43,940 nt of DNA from Verrucomicrobiota bacterium (GTDB lineage: Bacteria; Verrucomicrobiota; Verrucomicrobiia; Limisphaerales; CANJXF01). The stretch lies in contig JBBQRQ010000038.1 of the NCBI GenBank assembly GCA_038214755.1, forward strand, positions 1 to 43,940, in the 5' to 3' direction. Position numbers and translations under genes: made by a program. Of this stretch, positions 1,841-43,805 are shown in pieces (position 1 is the first letter of the stretch; every line of letters begins with the position of its first letter). The notes below the pieces were generated by a model. That model saw only the letters and a list, made by a program, of their open reading frames with translations, searched no databases and was not told the DNA's origin.

Positions 1841-1910
1841 TCCCACAAAATAATTCTCCCTCTCCTCGCCAAACGAGGGGAGGGTTGGGGTGAGGAGTCC
1901 GATTAACCGC
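1841..1910 (+). repeat. REP-like repeat (TCTCCCTCTCC...GGGGTGAGG family), left of the QueC cassette
   Basis: Its reverse complement aligns with 4689-4790, and its core with 13734-13770. Confidence 0.8.
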
Positions 1911-1936: not shown

Positions 1937-3796
1937 TTATCTCACGATGAAAACAGTGCATGGCCGTTTCTTTTCAAATTCGGATCGGAATTTGTCGTCG
2001 TTCGAAATTGCTCGGTGAGGATCATAGACTAAGAACAACACATGAACTTCAGACGGATATTTCATCAAGTCCGCTGCAATGCCGTCGGAAGCCTTGCTGG
2101 GAGTCGTTGAGCTTCGAATGAACTTACTCTCAATCAGAAGATTTTGTTCGTGCCACGAGTGATCTGGAATCGTCGTGGCGATGCCGAAGCGAATTGCCGG
2201 ATGTTCCCGCTCGAAACTGTCTTTTTCGGCATTGAGTATCGCGCTTACTTTGTCGTTGAAATCAGGCTCATCCTTGGGACTGTTCTTCTGGAAAGCGATG
2301 GGAATAGCCGCTTTCATTTTGGAGCAGACGTTTTCAACCAATCGCAACACCGGAGTTTTCAGATATTCCCTCTCCGCCATCAATTTGAGGAGCGAGCCTG
2401 CTGGTATCCTCTTTGCCAGCTTGTCGTGTTTGTTTCTGATTCGGTTAAGGGCTTCCATCGCCTGTGTTCCGTGGCGCTTGCATAACTCCCAAATTTTTGT
2501 GTTCGCTTCTTCTTCAGTCTTAGCGCCGACAAAATCCACAACGTCCGCGAGTTCATTTAGCAACTCTCGGCAAAAATGATCGGCATTCCATTCAGCGAAG
2601 TCACGCGCTTGGCGAATGTAATCAAGAAGTGTTGTTCGCACCTCACCCTCTGAAATCGCTTGGTTTATGAAATCTAACGCATAGACATCTGGCTCGTCTG
2701 TTTCTGCAAGCCCCGCAGCATACGTGGCAATTCTGCGGTCAATGCACTGAGAGCAACCACCGCAATGAGAAGCTTGCTCAAGTTTTAGAAAGGTTTTGCT
2801 GCAAGAGACGGCACTCGGAATGAGATGGCGCTGGTTGGATTTTCCCAAGCTCTCCAAAAGGTCGGCTTTTGTTTTCCAAAAGAAGGGTGTCTCGATTGTC
2901 AGTTTGCGACCGATCACCTCAGAAAAGAGTTGTTGGAGAAGATGGATGGTCTTGGGGTGGGTGGTCCGTGTAGCCCTGCCATTCATCAAGTCCTGTCGCC
3001 GGATAAAATTCAATGAAGTAATTCCATTTTCAAAAATGGAAAACTTTTGTTTTGAAAGAGCGGCACACAACGAGGCAGCTATTGAAGAATAGAGAAACAT
3101 TCGTGTTCGCTGTGTCTCTTCCGCTGCCCGCGGGCCGGTTAGCCCGCAGTGAAACTTGTAGTGTTGGATACGATTGGGGAATGCCTCAACTAGAGCTTTG
3201 ACGAGTTGCTCTTGAGTCCGGGCTGTTCCCGGCTGGCCGGATCGATGACTTATCAGAAAAAGGCTGTCCGTCGAGTTCGCAAGCAGTTCACTAACGCCAG
3301 CGAGAGAATCCAATCCACCGGAGAACAGCGAAATCTGAGCGTTCGTCTTGGCTTGAAGCGCGAATTCCTCACGGTCAAACAGGTCGGCAGGAGGCGTGCT
3401 GTGTCCTGGTTGAAACGAGAAATTAAATTCTCGGTCTCCAGAAAGGAAACTAAGTGCTTCATTCAACGTGCGGACAATTTTCGGTTGTTTCCAAAAATCA
3501 AAATCGCGCACCTTCACATGAAAATGGAAACTTCGACTCCACTTGTGGTATTCAACGGCGTCCTTCGGCCCTCTGCTAACGGAACGGTCTGCACAATAAA
3601 CGTAGGCGGCGAGTTCTAACAGGTCGAGGATTCGTTCAGGAAGATGGAACACGCTTTGGATGAAGCGCGGCAACCCGATCCGGACATTCCGGTTCTGCCC
3701 ATACTTGTCCAAACACAACGGCTTTATTTCTGCGACAACTTCCGCTGGAAGCTTCGCTCCATTGCAAAGAACATTCTGGTGCGTTGTCTTGGCCAT
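1937..3796 (-). CDS. QueC/QatC-like PP-loop enzyme fused to a C-terminal PD-(D/E)XK (REase_DpnII-MboI-like) nuclease domain
   Basis: QatC-like N-terminal DLLELAAYVYCADR...R; PP-loop LFSGGLDS; RTR..LY; ENG; TRTTHP; PFFWKTK; Zn cysteines SCSK...HCGGCSQCIDRR. The last ~125 aa carry KDEPDF...EREHP...IPDH...LLIESK...DLMKY...FLVYDP. ATG 3796 overlaps the upstream TGA. Confidence 0.85.
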   Translation of the reverse strand: MAKTTHQNVLCNGAKLPAEVVAEIKPLCLDKYGQNRNVRIGLPRFIQSVFHLPERILDLLELAAYVYCADRSVSRGPKDAVEYHKWSRSFHFHVKVRDFDFWKQPKIVRTLNEALSFLSGDREFNFSFQPGHSTPPADLFDREEFALQAKTNAQISLFSGGLDSLAGVSELLANSTDSLFLISHRSGQPGTARTQEQLVKALVEAFPNRIQHYKFHCGLTGPRAAEETQRTRMFLYSSIAASLCAALSKQKFSIFENGITSLNFIRRQDLMNGRATRTTHPKTIHLLQQLFSEVIGRKLTIETPFFWKTKADLLESLGKSNQRHLIPSAVSCSKTFLKLEQASHCGGCSQCIDRRIATYAAGLAETDEPDVYALDFINQAISEGEVRTTLLDYIRQARDFAEWNADHFCRELLNELADVVDFVGAKTEEEANTKIWELCKRHGTQAMEALNRIRNKHDKLAKRIPAGSLLKLMAEREYLKTPVLRLVENVCSKMKAAIPIAFQKNSPKDEPDFNDKVSAILNAEKDSFEREHPAIRFGIATTIPDHSWHEQNLLIESKFIRSSTTPSKASDGIAADLMKYPSEVHVLFLVYDPHRAISNDDKFRSEFEKKRPCTVFIVR

Positions 3797-4569
3797 CACT
3801 TGTTGCCCTCTCGACGCAACTCTTCCCGAATTTTTCCAAACGCAATTGCCAGAAATCCTTCAACCTCTTTGTCGGACGGCGTTGACTCTTTCGTATGAAG
3901 GTTGTGCCAGCCAGCGGCGAATGACTGCGTTATCTTCGCTGTTTCAAACGCATGCTTCGAAATGGTGTCGATGTGCTGTCGAAGTTGCTCTTGCAGCAAG
4001 TCGCGCTGTTCGATGGTGCGACATGAAGCAGAGGCTTCACGTTCCAAGAAATAATTCAGATAGCGCTCTGTGAATTTCGCGAAAAACAATCGCGACAATT
4101 CACAAAATCCAGCGCCGGTGGCAGCCTTGCTCCAAATTTCTGTCTGTTCGCCCTCACCTTGGAAAAGCGACTTCTGGCTGCTGTGTTCGCTATACCAATT
4201 CGCGATTGCATCACTGGCTGCGCCCTGAGCGAGTTGTGCATATTCCAGCGAATCGCGATTGTTGCTTACCCATTGATGAAGCGCTTTTGCGAGCGCAAGC
4301 GGAGAAAGCGTAGGTGAAATCTGTATGCCGTAAGGAAGAGTTTTTTGAGATCGCGGGGTGGTGCTAATCGAAAGTGCAACCAAGAATTTGAACGCGGCTT
4401 TAATTCCTGAATCGTGCTGGATTGACTCAAACCTCGACCGGACATTCGCCAATGTGCTCGAAGCAATCTCCGACGCATCAACTTGCGTTCCCGAAAAGCT
4501 GGCAATCTGTTTGACGACACCCTTCCAAGGCTGTGTCTTGGGAAGAACTCCAATGCGTTCGTGACCCAT
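3796..4569 (-). CDS. Helical partner protein of the QueC-like enzyme (putative QatB-equivalent substrate)
   Basis: 257-aa ORF starting MGHERIG; its stop TGA overlaps the ATG of the QueC-like gene (TGATG); no catalytic motif recognised. The QatB-like role is inferred from context. Confidence 0.65.
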   Translation of the reverse strand: MGHERIGVLPKTQPWKGVVKQIASFSGTQVDASEIASSTLANVRSRFESIQHDSGIKAAFKFLVALSISTTPRSQKTLPYGIQISPTLSPLALAKALHQWVSNNRDSLEYAQLAQGAASDAIANWYSEHSSQKSLFQGEGEQTEIWSKAATGAGFCELSRLFFAKFTERYLNYFLEREASASCRTIEQRDLLQEQLRQHIDTISKHAFETAKITQSFAAGWHNLHTKESTPSDKEVEGFLAIAFGKIREELRREGNK

Positions 4570-4688: not shown

Positions 4689-4790
4689 GCGGTTGGATTC
4701 GACTCCTCACCCCGGCCATCTCCTCGTTCGATTCGCCTACGTCTGACTTCGGCGCAACGAGTGAGGAAAGGGAGAATTATTTTTTTGGGA
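4689..4790 (-). repeat. REP-like repeat, inverted copy of 1841-1910 with a ~30-bp insert in the loop
   Basis: GCGGTTGGATTCGACTCCTCACCCCGGCCATCTCCTCGTT...GAGGAAAGGGAGAATTATTTTTTTGGGA versus the reverse complement of the left copy, GCGGTTAATCGGACTCCTCACCCCAACCCTCCCCTCGTTTGGCGAGGAGAGGGAGAATTATTTTGTGGGA. Confidence 0.8.
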
Positions 4791-4878
4791 CGAATTAGGG
4801 CGGCAAGGCGCATGAGGCCCTTCTTCCCACGGCGGAATGGTTGACGAACTTCGGCCCGTAGGCTTCAATAACTGCGCC

Positions 4879-5439
4879 GTGAAGACGATCGCCGCCAATT
4901 ATTCCGAAGAAAAGCTTCAGCAGGTGATCGTGTATTTCCTGGAGCACATTAATAACGTACATCTGGGCCGCATCAAGCTGATGAAGCTCCTTTACTTCGT
5001 GGACTTTGACCATTACGAAGCGCACGGACGCTCCGTGAGCGGCGCGGTTTACCGCAAGCTCCCGCACGGGCCGTATCCCAAAGACGCCGAAAAGCTCATC
5101 AAGAAAATGCTCAAGGCCGGACAGGTGCGCGAAATCAAGGCGGACCACAAGGGCTTTACCCAACACCGGCTCATCACGCTCAACGCCAAGTTCGATCCCG
5201 CAAAATTTTCCGGAGCGGAACTCCAGACGCTCGAACGCGTCGCCGCCGACTGGGCCGATTCCACGGCCGCGCAAATCGAAGCCGCCACCCACCGCGAAGC
5301 GCCGTGGGCCGGCCCGACCGACGGAAAGACGATTGACTACGAGATGGCCGAATATCGCCGCGCCATCGGCTGCGAACCGCTCGACGAATCCCTCGCCCGC
5401 TCGCGGAAGTTTGCGGATTACGTCGCCGCGCTGGCGTGA
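4879..5439 (+). CDS. Panacea/SocA-like (DUF4065) antitoxin
   Basis: IKLMKLLYFVDF...G..Y.KLPHGPYP and TH...PW motifs typical of DUF4065. GTG 4879 preferred over ATG 4837 (start uncertain). Confidence 0.85.
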   Translation: MKTIAANYSEEKLQQVIVYFLEHINNVHLGRIKLMKLLYFVDFDHYEAHGRSVSGAVYRKLPHGPYPKDAEKLIKKMLKAGQVREIKADHKGFTQHRLITLNAKFDPAKFSGAELQTLERVAADWADSTAAQIEAATHREAPWAGPTDGKTIDYEMAEYRRAIGCEPLDESLARSRKFADYVAALA

Positions 5440-5448
5440 TTTTCTCGC

Positions 5449-5814
5449 ATGGGGGCATTCACTGTCATTCGCACACCCGCGTTTGACCTGCTGGCCAGTG
5501 AATACGCCCGCCAACATCCCAAGCTCCACGACGATCTCGACTGGCTCCTCGGTCGGTTGGCCGAAGCGCCGGAACAGATGGGTGATCATGTGCCCGAACT
5601 ACGCGGCTTCGCGCTGCCCATTTTCAAAACGCGCTGCAAGGACTCGTGCCATCGCATCGGCGCGTCCGGCGCGTGGCGGATTTACTACGCGCTGAATAAA
5701 CCGGCTGGCCGCGTTTTCCTTTTGTTTCTCCACCACAAAAAGGAATACGAAAATCCCGGCGCGAAATTTCTCCTGCAAAAACTCGAACGTGCATTCGTTT
5801 ACGCGGCCAAATGA
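5449..5814 (+). CDS. RelE/HigB-family toxin
   Basis: 121 aa: VIRTPAF...IFKTR...GASGAWRIYY...VFLLFLHHK, RelE/HigB2-like; starts 9 nt after the Panacea gene. Confidence 0.75.
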   Translation: MGAFTVIRTPAFDLLASEYARQHPKLHDDLDWLLGRLAEAPEQMGDHVPELRGFALPIFKTRCKDSCHRIGASGAWRIYYALNKPAGRVFLLFLHHKKEYENPGAKFLLQKLERAFVYAAK

Positions 5815-37912: not shown

Positions 37913-38716
37913 CTAGTGAAGACGGGACTTGCTCACCGTTTTTTCGACGCTTGGAATTGCCTCATAACCAACACCCGTCGGCGTCCAGCGGCGCTTGACT
38001 AAAATGGTATTGGTAGGCAGACCAAGAATTTCGAAGTAGTTGGTCGGCGGCACTAGTCGCAAGTGGTTAAAATCTGGGAAAAGGAGGTATCGCCAACCGA
38101 AACTAAAGCTTACGATGTTACTCGAAATACCGGAAACGTGGACGACACAATTGGCCTTCCTCGTTTCCCATTCAAATTCATAATACGGCAGCGGATATGT
38201 CTTTGGATGCTCCTTCGTTTCGACGTACGTCCACCCGTTCGACTTATAGGAAATTTTATCATCAATCCATTTTAACTGCTCCTTCTTAACCGGTTTTTTG
38301 AATCCGATTTGTTTCACTGGAATTCCGTAAGCCACCATAGCCGATTCGGCAATTTGTTGTGCTTTTTTAAATGTTAAAAGGTTCGTCTCATGCATCCATT
38401 GGGTATGGTTGGTTAAATAGCCGACGTAATATCCCTTGTCTGTAAATCCAATAGGATCTCCGGTGTTGCTTCCAAAAATATAACGATCGTCAAAAGTTAT
38501 ACCCGCACTTAAACCCTCGGGGTGGGGAGTCGCGTCGAAATGCGTGACCTTGTTTGATGCGATGAGGCTATCGTTGAGATGCCATTTCAACGCCAAAGCC
38601 TGCGCATTGGTCATGATTGTGTTGAAGGCATATTCTTTGAAAGCTGGAGTATTCGTGGGTATGACCCCGCTTAAGGTAAGCACGATCATGTTGGTAAGAA
38701 GATTCGTGACGATCAC
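37913..38716 (-). CDS. Hypothetical exported protein, distant paralog of the two upstream genes
   Basis: TNTPAFKEYAF...AQ.LA..WHL aligns with TTPAYQEAAF...AN.V...LGL; similar AQQIA and YY..EW segments. Confidence 0.7.
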   Translation of the reverse strand: MIVTNLLTNMIVLTLSGVIPTNTPAFKEYAFNTIMTNAQALALKWHLNDSLIASNKVTHFDATPHPEGLSAGITFDDRYIFGSNTGDPIGFTDKGYYVGYLTNHTQWMHETNLLTFKKAQQIAESAMVAYGIPVKQIGFKKPVKKEQLKWIDDKISYKSNGWTYVETKEHPKTYPLPYYEFEWETRKANCVVHVSGISSNIVSFSFGWRYLLFPDFNHLRLVPPTNYFEILGLPTNTILVKRRWTPTGVGYEAIPSVEKTVSKSRLH

Positions 38717-38777
38717 AATTCAACGCCGCTTTCCTTTATGTTTCTCGGCACGGGCAAAGGCGAAGTGCCTTAGCCCG

Positions 38778-39632
38778 TTAGTCTGCGCGGGGAGGCGGCA
38801 GATATATTGTTTCCACTGGTCGGTTAGTGGTAATAGTGGCCTTTCCCGGAAATAATGCTGCCAAATTGGTGAACACCACAGGCGCGCGCAGGATGTATTT
38901 TGGATCTTCCACGCTTAAGCTGAGAAGTGTTTTGGTTGGCAAGAATAATTCCACAGATGCTCCCCCTCCAGCCGAGTAAGGCGGTTTGCCTTTCGTCAGC
39001 CACGAAACGATGTAAAGCGGAGTGAACTTGCGTTTTGGCAATTCTCCCATGTTGACGTTATTCCAATAAGGATCGAGAGCGACGCGGACATCGTAATCCC
39101 GGTTCAAGGCTTGGATATCCATGCGAGCAGTAGCCAGCCATTGTGTCGCCAGTTGGTAAGCGGTATTGGTGTCCAATCGCTTGAGTGGCCATTGGTATTT
39201 TTCCGCATACTCCCGACAATTACCGTCTATGTTCGCGATTGTTATATCACTGAACTTGTTCCCGCGTTTGACAAAATACCAGTAATTTGTCGTCTTTATG
39301 TTTCCGATTGCTTTTTCTGTGAACGCATACCCGAACGGAGAAATAAAAGCATGAACAATGTCGGACTCTGTTATCGGACGACTCTCCAGAAGGCCGAGGT
39401 CAGAAACGACTTGATTTGCTTCTTGAACGACCAGCTTAAAAGCCGCTTCTTGATATGCGGGTGTGGTAAACATGAAGTCAACGCTGACGAGTTCACCGTT
39501 CGTGTTCACTGTTCTAGGCACGCCGGGCGGAAGCTCTTGGGTCGTATCATTCGGAATTGCAGATAAACTCGCTGCCTGCGTTTGCAGTAACATCAAACAA
39601 ACCAGAGGGAATAGAATCCATTGCGCGTTCAT
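38778..39632 (-). CDS. Hypothetical exported protein (paralog 2)
   Basis: Signal peptide; GGAG just upstream of ATG 39632 (alternative start 39656); extensive identity to 39752-40573. Confidence 0.8.
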   Translation of the reverse strand: MNAQWILFPLVCLMLLQTQAASLSAIPNDTTQELPPGVPRTVNTNGELVSVDFMFTTPAYQEAAFKLVVQEANQVVSDLGLLESRPITESDIVHAFISPFGYAFTEKAIGNIKTTNYWYFVKRGNKFSDITIANIDGNCREYAEKYQWPLKRLDTNTAYQLATQWLATARMDIQALNRDYDVRVALDPYWNNVNMGELPKRKFTPLYIVSWLTKGKPPYSAGGGASVELFLPTKTLLSLSVEDPKYILRAPVVFTNLAALFPGKATITTNRPVETIYLPPPRAD

Positions 39633-39751
39633 ATTTCTCCACGAGTTATTCAGCATTCTCAGGAGCGGCGTATTTTATATCTCCGTCTAAGTTATGTCAG
39701 TTCTATCGACTTGAAGTCCCGGGAAACCAACGATGTAGATCTTGCCGATGC

Positions 39752-40573
39752 TTAATCCAGGCCGGGTGCTGGTCCCTCAACTGTTTTGACAGGATAATTT
39801 GTAACAATGGTGGCGTGCCCCGGAAACAACGCTGCTAAATTAGTGAATACCAGCGGCGGGCGCAGAATGTATTTGGCGTCTGTGACGCTTAATTGCAGCA
39901 GTTGCTTCGTCGGTAGGTACAATTCTACGTAAGCAACACTGCCGACTGAATCGTCCGTCTTTTCTTTAGATTGCCATGACACGAAGTAAAGCGGCGTAAT
40001 TTCCTTTCGAGCTTTCTTTTCTGCGCCCGGCAGCATGTCTGTGGTCAAATCTATGTGCAGTTCACAATCCCGATTCAATCCTTTTACATCCATATGCACC
40101 GCCGCCAGCCATTGCGTCGCCAGTTGATAGGCTGTGTTTGTGTTCATGGCTCGAACCGGCTCGGCAAACTTCTTGTCCCGATATTTCACATAGTAGTCAT
40201 CATAGTTGGCAATTGTCAGATCGCTGAATTTGCACCCTCTGCCAACGCCATAAAAGTAATTGGTTGTTGTGACATTCCCAATCGCCTTGAACTGGTAAGC
40301 AAATCCAAACGGAGAAATAAAAACGTGGGTTAAATTTTCTTCGGCAATTGATAGCGCCTCCAGTTTTAGTTCTTTGGCCACTTTGTTGGCTTCTTGGAGT
40401 ACCAGCCGCAAGGCTTCCTCTTGATAGGCGTGGGTGGTAAAAGTCGAATCAATAAATTCCACGGTGCCATTGGTGCTTAAGACTCGCGGCACACCGGGCG
40501 GAAGCCCGTCCATCGCCCGAGCTTGAAATAAAACGCAAAGAAAACAAAAGGTGAGGTAAAATCTATTCTTCAT
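39752..40573 (-). CDS. Hypothetical exported protein (paralog 1)
   Basis: MKNRFYLTFCFLCVLFQARA signal peptide; shares LPPGVPR, FISPFG, KAIGN, KFSD, NTAYQLATQWLA, LPTK, KYILR and VFTNLAALFPG with paralog 2. Confidence 0.8.
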   Translation of the reverse strand: MKNRFYLTFCFLCVLFQARAMDGLPPGVPRVLSTNGTVEFIDSTFTTHAYQEEALRLVLQEANKVAKELKLEALSIAEENLTHVFISPFGFAYQFKAIGNVTTTNYFYGVGRGCKFSDLTIANYDDYYVKYRDKKFAEPVRAMNTNTAYQLATQWLAAVHMDVKGLNRDCELHIDLTTDMLPGAEKKARKEITPLYFVSWQSKEKTDDSVGSVAYVELYLPTKQLLQLSVTDAKYILRPPLVFTNLAALFPGHATIVTNYPVKTVEGPAPGLD

Positions 40574-40583
40574 GGGACTTTGG

Positions 40584-43500
40584 TTATTCAACATTTGAAG
40601 GGGCAATATATTTTTTGGCAGGAGTCACCCCGGTATTGACGCCATTAACCGTGAGACCCTGAAATCCAACGATATAAATCTTGCTGGTGGAAATGTTCGT
40701 GTAGGAATACGAGTAACCAGTGCCAAAGACAGTTACGTTCTTATTTTCAGGCACTGCCAACGGCGTTCTGCCTGAGGCCGACACCGAAGCGACGTCTAAG
40801 CATTCTTTCAATGGCCTGCCATTCATCCACATGGAATAAAAATTTGCCAATGTCTGTGTGTAGCCCTTGGCGATATTGATCGCTGCCGTGGAGTTCTCGC
40901 TAAAGCCCAACCATCCGGCATGAATATCCGCCCAGCCCACATACGCCTGCGCACCGGTTTTGTTTCGTGCGGCTTGCTCCTGCGCTCCTTTGCCAATCGG
41001 ATAAATGCCAAAAGCCCGCCGCCAATCTTTTCCTGAAGCAGTGGCGCAGCCATCCAGCCAAACAAATCGATAGGGATTCTGCGTCATTAAACCGTTGGTC
41101 TTTGTGTAGGTGTTTTTTAACCGCGAACTGACATCTGATGCCGTAATGTAGGCATCGTCGTCGTAATTGCCAATCCAACTGTTGGTTCCATGGCCCCTGA
41201 TATAAATTTGCTTAGTCAGACCGTTAGTCATGTCCGGTAGTAGCGTTTCAATAACGCTTGGAAGGCTTGCTGGATCGTTGGTTAATCTTGACCGCCGAGT
41301 CATGTAGCCTGGATATTCTCCGTGTATATCAGGCAAGTAACGATTAAAATAAGACTGATAGACCCCGTAGCCTAAATTAGGTTTTATTAAGGCATCAACC
41401 ATACCTTGTAAGCCGTTCCAAATAGCCCCGTTTTTTGCATAGGCGGTTTTCAAAGCATCATTTGTAGGTGTGTAAAAATAAACTACATCCATGTTTGGTC
41501 CCCATTCTGACAACGAACCTTTTGCTCTAGTCAAAATCTTTTTCGGTTTGTTGGTTGAGACATTTCCCGGGGTGTTCGCATATGCGACGGTGAACACCGC
41601 CTGCACTTCGCTGTTGGTGAATGGCGTAACGCCATCGGCCAACATCCCATCCCAATTCTCCTCAATAAATCCGTTGGACGTGCTGTTGGTAATCGTTTTG
41701 ATCAGCGTCGGCGGAGTCGTTGAGGTGTCGTAGAGATCAATCTGGTAGTCAGCATCCGCCGCAAATAGCTTCGCATCCACGTATGCCCCACTATCGTCAA
41801 ACATGGAACCGCTCTCAAAAAACTGAACGGAGTTGCTCGAATAAAAGGGCAGTAATTTGCCCATTGAAAGTGTTACCGGATGTTCTGTTCCCGGATCTGA
41901 GCCATAACGAAATCCAGCCGACAAATAATGCTGGCCTAAGGGGTCAAAAGCCACATTGAATGAAAGCAGGCAATTCCCATTGGTGGCTCGGGTACATTCT
42001 TCAAGGGTCACGTCAATCCCGTTCATGTTGAGGTTCAAGGTCCCCGCGTTTGTCACTCGATCATAACTTACCGGTATTTCAAAGGTGGCAAAGTCTGGTT
42101 CTTCGCCCGTTGTGATTTGCAGCAACGTCAGCGGATTATTTGCGTCCAGCGGATTCAAATTTAAGGCGCGTTTGATTCTTCCTACCAATCCGTTGCCAGA
42201 AAGATCAATGTCATCATAGACCGTGCTGTAAGCATCCGGTGTCACGCCGTCCGTCATCGCCAGAGTGGGGTCAGTTTCATTGGAATCGAATTGCCCATTT
42301 CCATTGGCATCTTCGACATAATCAGGAATACCATCGCCGCCGCCCGAATCCGAATCCTTCGGGAAACCATTGCTCGCGGCGACATAGTGCAATCCTATAC
42401 TAACATTTCCCGTTTCATCACCTTCCTTTGTTTGGTCGGTTCGAGTGGTGTAATGGTAAAGTCCAGCCTCGGCCGGTGAACGGCTACCGGCCTTGTGCAA
42501 AGGTGAACTTGTCGGCAAATAATAATTTCCAAATGTGCTGGTCTGATACGCGGGCGCGGACGACAAAACCATGTCATTCACCGCATCCGTGCCACCATCA
42601 TCATTGTTCACAGCTAAACGGGACATTTGCCACGGTTCCAATTCGGATGATGTCCGTTCCCAGTATCCGTTGTAATCGTGATTGAGCGGCGGTGGGCCGT
42701 CTGACTGATATTCAAATGCTACTTTATCGAACAGATTATCCCCGAACGCCCAAAGCTCTCCAGTTGATGTCTCTCTGGAGTTCACCACCATCCGCCCTCC
42801 ACGAAACAAGTTATTGTTAACAGCGAACTTAAAATCGATGTTAAGGCCCCCTGGATAAGCATAGTAATTGGGGTCGAGCCTGATATTGAGCCGGTCGAAT
42901 AAATTATTAGCCCAGAACAACGAGCCGGGAGGGGTTATCGAGTAGCCTCGACCGAAGTCCGAATAGCCAATGGTGATGTGCCCACCATGTAGATTGCAGT
43001 CCTGCATGCGCCAGTCCATGGAACTGTCCGGTGACCAGCCGTACCCCAATTCCCAGGAAAAACCAGACCAGAATTGGTAATCTTCTGTTGGCAAATAAAA
43101 ATTAGAAAAGCGGAAGTCCATCTTCGGCGGTGCCTTATCCAATTCCCAAAGATTAGGAGCGAAGGCCAGCATGTGATAATCTATTCCGTAAAAATCCCAA
43201 AAGACAGTACGAGGGAACAAAAACGGACCTTCCTGGACAAATAGAACCGAGGCGAAGGTGTTCGGACTGTTCGGAGTGCCCTTACTAATGAAAGTCGAGT
43301 TTCCGCTTAGTTGAAATCCTCCAAGACTCCAAAAATTCTCGATATGATCGTTGCGAAAACCGATAGCGGTTCCAGGCTGCACCGTGATTGTGCCGCCTTT
43401 GACAACCATTGAAGCAACCGTGTAATCCAAGGCGTCGTAATGATAACCCAAATCCGGCGCACCGCTGATATAGCGCGGGACTTGCGAAAAAAGGGTCAAC

Positions 43501-43805
43501 TCGCCCTCAATTACGAAACCCATGGGAAAATCTACTGGCGGCTGGGTCGTTTTCTTTTTTAGATAATTCAGCAAGTCGGAATCAATTAATGTTGTTCCTT
43601 GAGCACGGAAGGAGCTATCTGCCTTCAAATAATGACCACCCGCACCCGACGTTTGAAATGGAGAGACGGCCGTTGAAAACTGATGCTGTCCGAATTCGCC
43701 ACAGCTGTAAAACCCGTTGTAGCTATCGCTGGTGTGAGGCAGCGTTCGGGAATGTTGAATGTTAGCAAGAACACAATTTTTCAGAGTAAATGCGCTGAAA
43801 CCTAG
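40584..43805 (-). pseudogene. Large extracellular multidomain protein, 5'-truncated by IS insertion (beta-helix-like repeats, Ca-binding motif, C-terminal His-Gly/Asp-Gly-Cys domain)
   Basis: The 1014-aa track ORF (TTG 43628) stays open ~60 more codons upstream (FSAFTLKNCVLANI...YNGFY...PFQTSGAGGHYL, homologous to the internal DYNGY...YQTSTFGNYYL repeat), with no ATG or signal peptide before the IS end. Confidence 0.7.

Follow-up and report, generated by a model that had tools for sequence, protein, structure and literature searches.

A two-gene QatBC-like module with a fused nuclease in a Verrucomicrobiota bacterium, likely a compact relative of the Qat anti-phage system not described before

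The DNA analysed here (the window) is a stretch of 43,940 nucleotides from a Verrucomicrobiota bacterium (assembly GCA_038214755.1, contig JBBQRQ010000038.1). It contains two contiguous genes on the reverse strand, coding for a small helical protein (the partner) and for a QueC-family enzyme with a nuclease domain fused to its C-terminus. The pair forms a QatBC module that is minimal by nature and has its effector built in. It is a Qat variant that stands outside QatABCD as that system is defined, and likely a compact relative of the Qat anti-phage system for which we found no earlier description. We consider it very probable that the pair is a defence system, and we lean, with considerable reservation, towards a self-contained switch against phages: by tagging Gly2 of the partner, the enzyme would turn on its own fused effector. 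A preliminary description had reported two coupled genes, a Met-Gly-His start in the first and, in the second, an SGGLDS motif, zinc cysteines, an N-terminal extension and a C-terminal nuclease domain; all of these were found. Both open reading frames (ORFs) lie at the positions given in Table 1, and the TGA of the partner gene (3798-3796) overlaps the ATG of the enzyme gene (3796-3794) as TGATG. The enzyme is counted as 619 aa from this ATG, the ORF-finder start being a GTG one codon earlier (3799), and it has an N-terminal extension of 150 residues. The partner protein starts with MGHERIGVLPKTQPW (MGHER). No match to a sigma-70 promoter was found upstream of the pair. Comparison with a related locus (L001) gave nonsynonymous divergence (dN) of 0.11-0.16 versus synonymous divergence (dS) of 1.7-3.4, indicating purifying selection on both genes. 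With this divergence and the 1610 partner homologs described below, the pair lies well beyond chance; it is real, intact and under selection.

Library scans identified the enzyme as QatC-like (PADLOC QatC, E 3.9e-49; NCBIfam QatC, 194.6 bits, below the equivalog cut-off of 280), and the QatC chains 9vlk_A and 9zee_B of the PDB matched it with E 1.5e-23 and 1.8e-22. The Foldseek check proposed in the preliminary description pointed the same way: the enzyme model (mean predicted local distance difference test, pLDDT, 87.4) had QatC 9y01_B as its best match by far (E 2.4e-18, target TM 0.74), the next matches being QueC and Cap9 at E 1e-5 to 1e-4. The QatC signature taken from PMC13329287 was entirely present in the enzyme: D63, Dx4R..WxR, SGGxDS, RxRxxxF/Y, ExG, T-R-T, HP, Px4TK, the four zinc cysteines and Y376. 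Each signature position was kept in 69-71 of 71 full-length homolog cores, and the active-site and zinc residues of QatC in 71/71. The canonical QueC family TIGR00364 gave 18.2 bits versus a cut-off of 150.3, and the 619 aa of the enzyme compare with about 220 aa in that family.

Scans of the partner against Pfam, PADLOC, NCBIfam and PDB sequences gave no family match, QatB NF041924 included; hits to Pfam RVT_1 and PADLOC RT/Drt3a (E 0.001-0.01 over 50-60 residues) and to a thioredoxin (E 1) were dismissed as noise. Foldseek of the partner model (pLDDT 81.9; residues 1-7 low, first helix from residue 13) returned no match at E<=0.001. The QatB chains 9y01_A and 9y02_A (E 0.2-0.5, TM 0.44-0.48) stood out by probability (0.91 and 0.82; others <=0.38), and realignment (VIA) to 9y02_A and 9y01_A gave Z 11.7 and 11.4, root-mean-square deviations of 4.0 and 4.3, and the next match at Z 6.8. 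In these alignments 194 and 205 residues were aligned (of 211-215), model residues 10-256 lying on QatB residues 64-287. Because the fold match is joined by the position of the gene before qatC and by an Atlas lead (0.88 to a cluster containing 15% QatB), we hold homology of the partner to QatB to be highly probable. The modelled partner is most likely a remote QatB with a short tail, and not a new protein class; on this match, the 60-residue flexible tail of QatB would be shortened here to about ten residues. The claim of a wholly new system has to be given up in favour of a Qat variant.

A complex of the enzyme core (residues 1-482) with the partner (residues 2-257), ATP and Zn was predicted alongside three controls. 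It scored 0.91 versus 0.00 for the best of the three controls, and in calibration the mark applied was reached by 116/157 solved pairs and by 2/215 mismatched pairs. The runs had at least 87% of contacts in common, with a partner pLDDT of at least 85. As to whether the partner N-terminus enters the enzyme, a check also proposed earlier, partner residues 2-11 and 15 were placed in the predicted interface, which on the enzyme side includes the substrate loop (260-278), the Zn-site helix (349-353), the C-terminal helices (384-432) and residues 472-475. The substrate loop and the C-terminal helices are the two QatC surfaces that contact QatB (PMC13279940). The prediction suggests a QatBC-like 1:1 complex with the ten-residue tail of the partner against the substrate loop.

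Relatives were found by an alignment-based scan of genome contigs, a single-sequence scan of these contigs with the partner having given no match. We kept 80 of 129 confirmed genome relatives, 80 of 359 confirmed metagenome loci and four viral contigs (164 pair loci in total), selected by C-terminal patterns. The preliminary description had made its proposal depend on conservation of this glycine, and Gly2 was kept in 80/80 genome, 79/80 metagenome and 3/4 viral loci, the two exceptions (L109 and L151) each preceding a broken QatC gene. The best 120 of 1610 partner homologs at E<=1e-3 comprised 113 with Gly-His after the start codon, 4 with Gly-His behind a longer called start, and 3 with Asp, Arg or Glu at position 2. 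The exception on a viral contig (L109:5998-7103) has a partner with Arg in place of Gly2, ahead of a QatC remnant that carries an internal deletion; it may represent decay or a phage-borne decoy.

A QatC-like gene directly followed the partner in 79/80 genome loci (L061 was without one), and no third gene recurred in more than 8/80 of them, the recurrent neighbours being restriction-modification (RM) genes; this fixed order without a shared third gene bears out the proposed self-contained two-gene module. The reported absence of adjacent qatA and qatD was also upheld. A profile built from 6 QatA proteins had no match in the whole own genome and a single weak, non-adjacent one (L075) among the 164 pair loci, many metagenome loci being short-flanked; one built from 7 QatD proteins matched 0/164 of these and only one weak TatD-like gene of the own genome (41.5 bits, on another contig). 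Neither was a CD-NTase or queD/queE gene a companion: the partner had no Pfam or PADLOC CD-NTase match, and no third gene was conserved. The pair occurs in Verrucomicrobiota, Chloroflexota, Bacteroidota, Poribacteria, Planctomycetota, Desulfobacterota and other phyla, its closest named relatives being from Verrucomicrobiota, and it was found on 1/72,556 plasmids. It was missing from 60/60 relatives searched, which comprised 8 of the same genus and one genome that is unpublished. In one same-genus genome (G051) the site is empty, with the sulfatase gene followed after 42 bp by the pectate lyase gene, and about 5 kb of the window (the pair, a Panacea module and a BNR gene) is absent.

The fused domain was identified as REase_DpnII-MboI (PF18742) at enzyme residues 508-611 (35.2 bits versus a cut-off of 27; Atlas 0.94). 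Its residues D545, E556 and K558 were invariant in 73/73 aligned proteins, and the triad was present in 61/62 genome loci with such a tail, which agrees with the PD/ExK nuclease read from the sequence at the outset. With its catalytic triad intact, the domain is predicted to cut DNA. After residue 482, the 80 genome loci carried 62 DpnII-type and 9 TIR tails (catalytic-region Glu kept in 9/9), 3 unassigned tails, and 6 that were broken, absent or at a contig end. The 120 best core matches carried 82 DpnII-type, 31 TIR, 1 PNP+EAD7, 1 cyclase and 5 truncated tails; the core of the PNP form is 86% identical to that of the window, and the class III cyclase form (L115) has an MGHER partner. A FastTree tree was built from 86 cores (71 full-length genome cores, the window, 5 close proteins, 2 viral and 7 canonical QatC; broken cores were excluded). 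Inside its DpnII-bearing clades lay TIR (in two places), PNP, cyclase and two short-tail kinds, that is, at least six independent swaps in a tree whose deep nodes are weakly supported. A PF18742/PNP swap has been published for Detocs effectors (10.1101/2023.01.24.525353). The swappable effectors of the homologs strengthen the idea of gating, and the tail is probably an effector gated by the QatBC core. The short-tail loci form a well-supported subclade (support 1.0) plus one separate case, and they adjoin genes for integrase, Prim-Pol and HTH_17 excisionase-like proteins, a setting that resembles satellite or integrative elements; such forms possibly represent a non-toxic, regulatory use of the module.

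The PADLOC and neighbourhood-survey checks placed the pair in a defence-rich context, besides identifying the enzyme as QatC. For the 78 genome loci with any immediate neighbour (nearest up- or downstream ORF of at least 100 aa; 2 loci had none), PADLOC matches at E<=1e-8 were obtained in 45/148 neighbours over 37/78 loci, compared with 4/108 ORFs in 20 arbitrary 6-kb stretches from 18 host genomes and the own genome; shadow ORFs among the 148 make the 45/148 lower than it would otherwise be, and the loci are not fully independent. The neighbouring types were RM I, II, IIG and III, AbiE, DRT, Gabija, a Pycsar/CBASS TIR effector and others.

The preliminary description had taken as established that QueC-family defence enzymes attach a deazaguanine to the N-terminal glycine of a partner. 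This stands for Cap9 (10.1101/2025.04.06.647259) and does not extend firmly to QatC, for which liquid chromatography-tandem mass spectrometry detected a low-level NDG peptide on QatB but intact-mass measurement gave a negative result (PMC13639016). The Tyr/Asp pair that binds 7-carboxy-7-deazaguanine (CDG) in QueC and Cap9 is replaced in QatC (PMC13279940), and alignment with canonical QatC showed S/T-R-T in 71/71 cores where QueC and Cap9 have Tyr-x-Asp. In vitro, three groups were unable to demonstrate turnover of CDG by QatC, and no such activity is described in PMC13376578 and PMC13639016. A QueD match was obtained in 63/80 hosts and none in 17/80, counts without a matched background that do not serve as an enrichment test. 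Seven of the 17 QueD-less hosts are single-contig chromosomes, judged from title and length of their records; in five tested for QueE, three gave no match and two only partial ones. Since 16/17 QueD-less hosts carry the full core and nuclease triad, the pair can be kept in a host that does not make CDG, so the substrate would be another metabolite, or imported. The replaced Tyr/Asp, the lack of in vitro turnover and the QueD-less hosts all speak against the suggested sensing of phage deazaguanine. The own genome (G000, 97% complete) has QueD and a QueE-like gene (loci L083 and L085) and no match to canonical QueC or QueF; QueC over the cut-off was absent in 4/4 same-genus genomes tested.

In the switch that we favour, removal of the initial Met would expose Gly2 as nucleophile and predicted acceptor. 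QatC may then adenylate a carboxylate made available on infection, probably not host CDG, and ligate it to Gly2, after which the modified complex would dimerise or oligomerise. PD-(D/E)xK nucleases, TIR NADases, class III cyclases and PNP domains generally need oligomerisation. The outcome would be an abortive-infection type of defence, with DNA degraded here, NAD+ in TIR forms and ATP in PNP forms. Defence in E. coli is lost with QatB G2D and with QatC SSAA (PMC13279940). Much more tentatively, QatBC could be a general immune switch, in which an infection-derived metabolite other than host CDG, attached to the glycine by the PP-loop ligase as a single covalent mark, drives assembly of whatever C-terminal domain is present; outputs could be a nuclease, a TIR NADase, an ATP nucleosidase, a nucleotide cyclase, or a short non-toxic tail that might regulate integrase/Prim-Pol elements.

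Several observations weigh against this interpretation. Effector-less QatBC defends against lambda (PMC13279940), therefore the tail could be an add-on, and the QatC reaction has not been reconstituted in vitro (PMC13279940, PMC13376578, PMC13639016). Tails of 76-212 residues without a Pfam family are found in L031/L108, L073, L078, L110 and L111, with the catalytic core kept in the three short-tail loci checked. Loci L009, L012, L016, L040, L051, L059 and L077 are frameshifted or interrupted, and no known defence system lies next to the pair in the window, where only a Panacea antitoxin gene was found. As for the complex, residue 2 was given as an interface member without its contact residue on the enzyme, the pass may stem from likeness to solved QatBC structures, and the job included ATP and Zn, unlike the calibration pairs. 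As for the partner, Z values below about 13, such as the 11.7 and 11.4 obtained with QatB, can be common among helical bundles. A wide fold search in a representatives-only library had no QatB among the 50 matches listed, these being dynamin-type bundles only, with Z up to 7.7, and a comparison with 7 QatB proteins by hhalign fell short of significance (P 0.034, probability 1.5%, similar register).

If the QatBC core defended alone, the fused tail would be an accessory, independently regulated effector replacing QatD. The activity of QatBC alone on lambda (PMC13279940) argues for this, as do the catalytic core retained by short-tail forms and the description of QatD as a nuclease that acts autonomously, is inhibited by NTP and has weak affinity for QatB (PMC13434339); however, the near-invariant triad and the replacement of lost tails at the same junction by toxic domains make the pattern of an output slot, and we judge this alternative unlikely. 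Somewhat less likely still is a guard arrangement, in which a constitutively tagged or bound partner holds the effector off until infection stops the tagging or strips the partner, freeing the nuclease. Here the partner gene is upstream and translationally coupled. Antitoxin genes are often placed in this way. A large interface is also predicted on the helices beside the tail (384-432 and 472-475). However, QatABCD G2D and active-site mutants lose defence, with toxicity not reported in the available text (PMC13279940), which fits activation better, and the broken-partner loci L012, L016 and L059 keep their nuclease tail, some of these breaks being possible assembly errors.

We give a low probability, slightly below that of the guard arrangement, to an enzyme that puts CDG on Gly2 and senses the 7-deazaguanine precursors made by phages whose DNA is dG-modified. 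QueD-less hosts could obtain CDG only from outside, and the own genome, with its QueD and QueE-like genes, has no canonical QueC or QueF, both of which suit such sensing. Qat, however, acts on lambda, T4 and P1, none of which is known to carry deazaguanine. Cap9 does perform this chemistry (10.1101/2025.04.06.647259) and the low-level NDG peptide exists (PMC13639016), but the CDG-binding Tyr/Asp is replaced in 71/71 cores, QatC showed no CDG-dependent activity (PMC13376578, PMC13639016), and intact-mass spectrometry was negative. Hardly probable at all is an RM-like system with a QueC domain marking host DNA and the DpnII-like domain cutting unmarked DNA: the tail is related to restriction enzymes and many neighbours are RM genes, yet E. 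coli QatC bound neither DNA nor RNA (PMC13376578), TIR, PNP and cyclase tails would make no sense in it, and the partner Gly2 would go unexplained.

The features of the pair are collected in Table 1. Its neighbours in the window are genes for a sulfatase, a Panacea/SocA antitoxin, a BNR-repeat protein and a pectate lyase. At 4837-5814 on the forward strand, the antitoxin gene is followed by one for a 121-aa protein without family match, likely its toxin. Two inverted copies resembling repetitive extragenic palindromic (REP) elements bracket the pair exactly and may mark its arrival; a BLAST search with this palindrome matched the own genome only 4 times. Elsewhere, at 37913-43628 on the reverse strand, a run of four genes (1014, 284, 292 and 267 aa) had no Pfam or PADLOC match and a GC content of 46-50% versus about 53%.

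Table 1. Features of the gene pair and its flanks, in window coordinates
Feature	Position	Strand	Basis
QatB-like partner, 257 aa, all-helical, short N-terminal tail	3796..4569	-	ORF, structure model, fold match to QatB
Partner N-terminal motif MGHERIGVLP	4540..4569	-	G2, H3 and R5 each in 80/80 genome loci
TGATG stop/start overlap, translational coupling	3794..3798	-	Sequence
QatC-like QueC-family PP-loop enzyme with fused nuclease, 619 aa	1937..3796	-	Library scans, model match to QatC
QatC-like core, residues 1-482 (N-extension, Rossmann core, C-terminal helical extension)	2351..3796	-	Model, alignment
PP-loop SGGLDS, residues 159-164	3305..3322	-	S, G, G, D and S each in 71/71 full-length cores
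T-R-T-T-H-P, residues 276-281, QatC-type, in place of the CDG-binding Tyr/Asp of QueC/Cap9	2954..2971	-	Alignment; PMC13279940
Zn site C332...C345-x2-C348-x2-C351	2744..2803	-	71/71 full-length cores
REase_DpnII-MboI (PF18742) PD-(D/E)xK tail, residues 483-619, swappable effector slot	1940..2350	-	Pfam, Atlas
Nuclease triad D545/E556/K558	2123-2167	-	Intact in 61/62 genome loci with DpnII-type tail
Left copy of palindromic REP-like element, inverted to right copy	1842..1899	.	Arms of the copies 86% and 88% complementary
Right copy of REP-like element, upstream of partner gene	4701..4788	.	Fragments recur elsewhere in same-genus genomes

In the literature searched (supplements and subscription papers lay outside its scope) we found no description of a pair formed by a QatB-like protein and a QatC-effector fusion. 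The available text of a survey of 631 QatD-anchored clusters names no such fused form (PMC13434339, section 17), that of 10.1101/2024.10.10.617714, PMC13434031 and PMC13069673 describes no fusion pair, and that of 10.64898/2025.12.03.692087 and 10.1101/2024.01.28.577318 contains no QueC or Qat. These proteins may already be included in the candidate tables of large defence-discovery papers or in the network tables of PMC13329287, whose QatC cluster has qatA/qatD nearby in no more than about 34% of cases. Three 2026 structure papers state the anti-phage mechanism of QatBC and the substrate ligated by QatC as open questions. With a recognisable effector on the enzyme itself, activation can be read as DNA cleavage, or as loss of NAD+ or ATP in the TIR and PNP forms, and this direct readout opens the trigger and substrate of QatBC to assay and would make the mechanism of Qat testable. 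With the pair, the range of Qat-type immunity grows from mainly Pseudomonadota to many phyla. The general switch, if true, would give bacterial immunity a signalling logic of a new kind and account for the output that is hidden in QatABCD.

Compared with known systems, the pair did not map fully to any, as the preliminary description had supposed; it shows only part of what defines QatABCD. It shares with that system the qatB-qatC order, the QatB helical fold, Gly2, the QatC motifs and the predicted interface (PDB 9y01/9y02, 9vlk, 9zee). In contrast to QatABCD, it lacks QatA and QatD and has a fused, swappable effector instead; its partner starts with MGHER and has a tail of about 10 residues, whereas QatB starts with MGTS and has a disordered tail of 30-90 residues, only Gly2 being common. 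Structural identity is about 12% for the partner and 22% for the enzyme, and H184, E227, Q229 and R274 are invariant residues specific to the clade of the pair. With Cap9-CdnD of type IV CBASS it shares a QueC-fold enzyme that acts, in the pair by prediction, on the N-terminal Gly of a partner (10.1101/2025.04.06.647259), but it has no CD-NTase, Cap10 (TGT) or second messenger, it lacks the Tyr/Asp CDG pair of Cap9, and its enzyme is 2.6x longer even without the tail. In Detocs, too, the signalling core is joined to a C-terminal effector that can be exchanged, PNP for PF18742 among others (10.1101/2023.01.24.525353), but it signals by histidine-aspartate phosphotransfer and the pair would by PP-loop ligation, with no common core. 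Canonical QueC has the PP-loop and Zn site in common with the enzyme, which differs from it in a QatC-type active site and in having no queD or queE adjacent.

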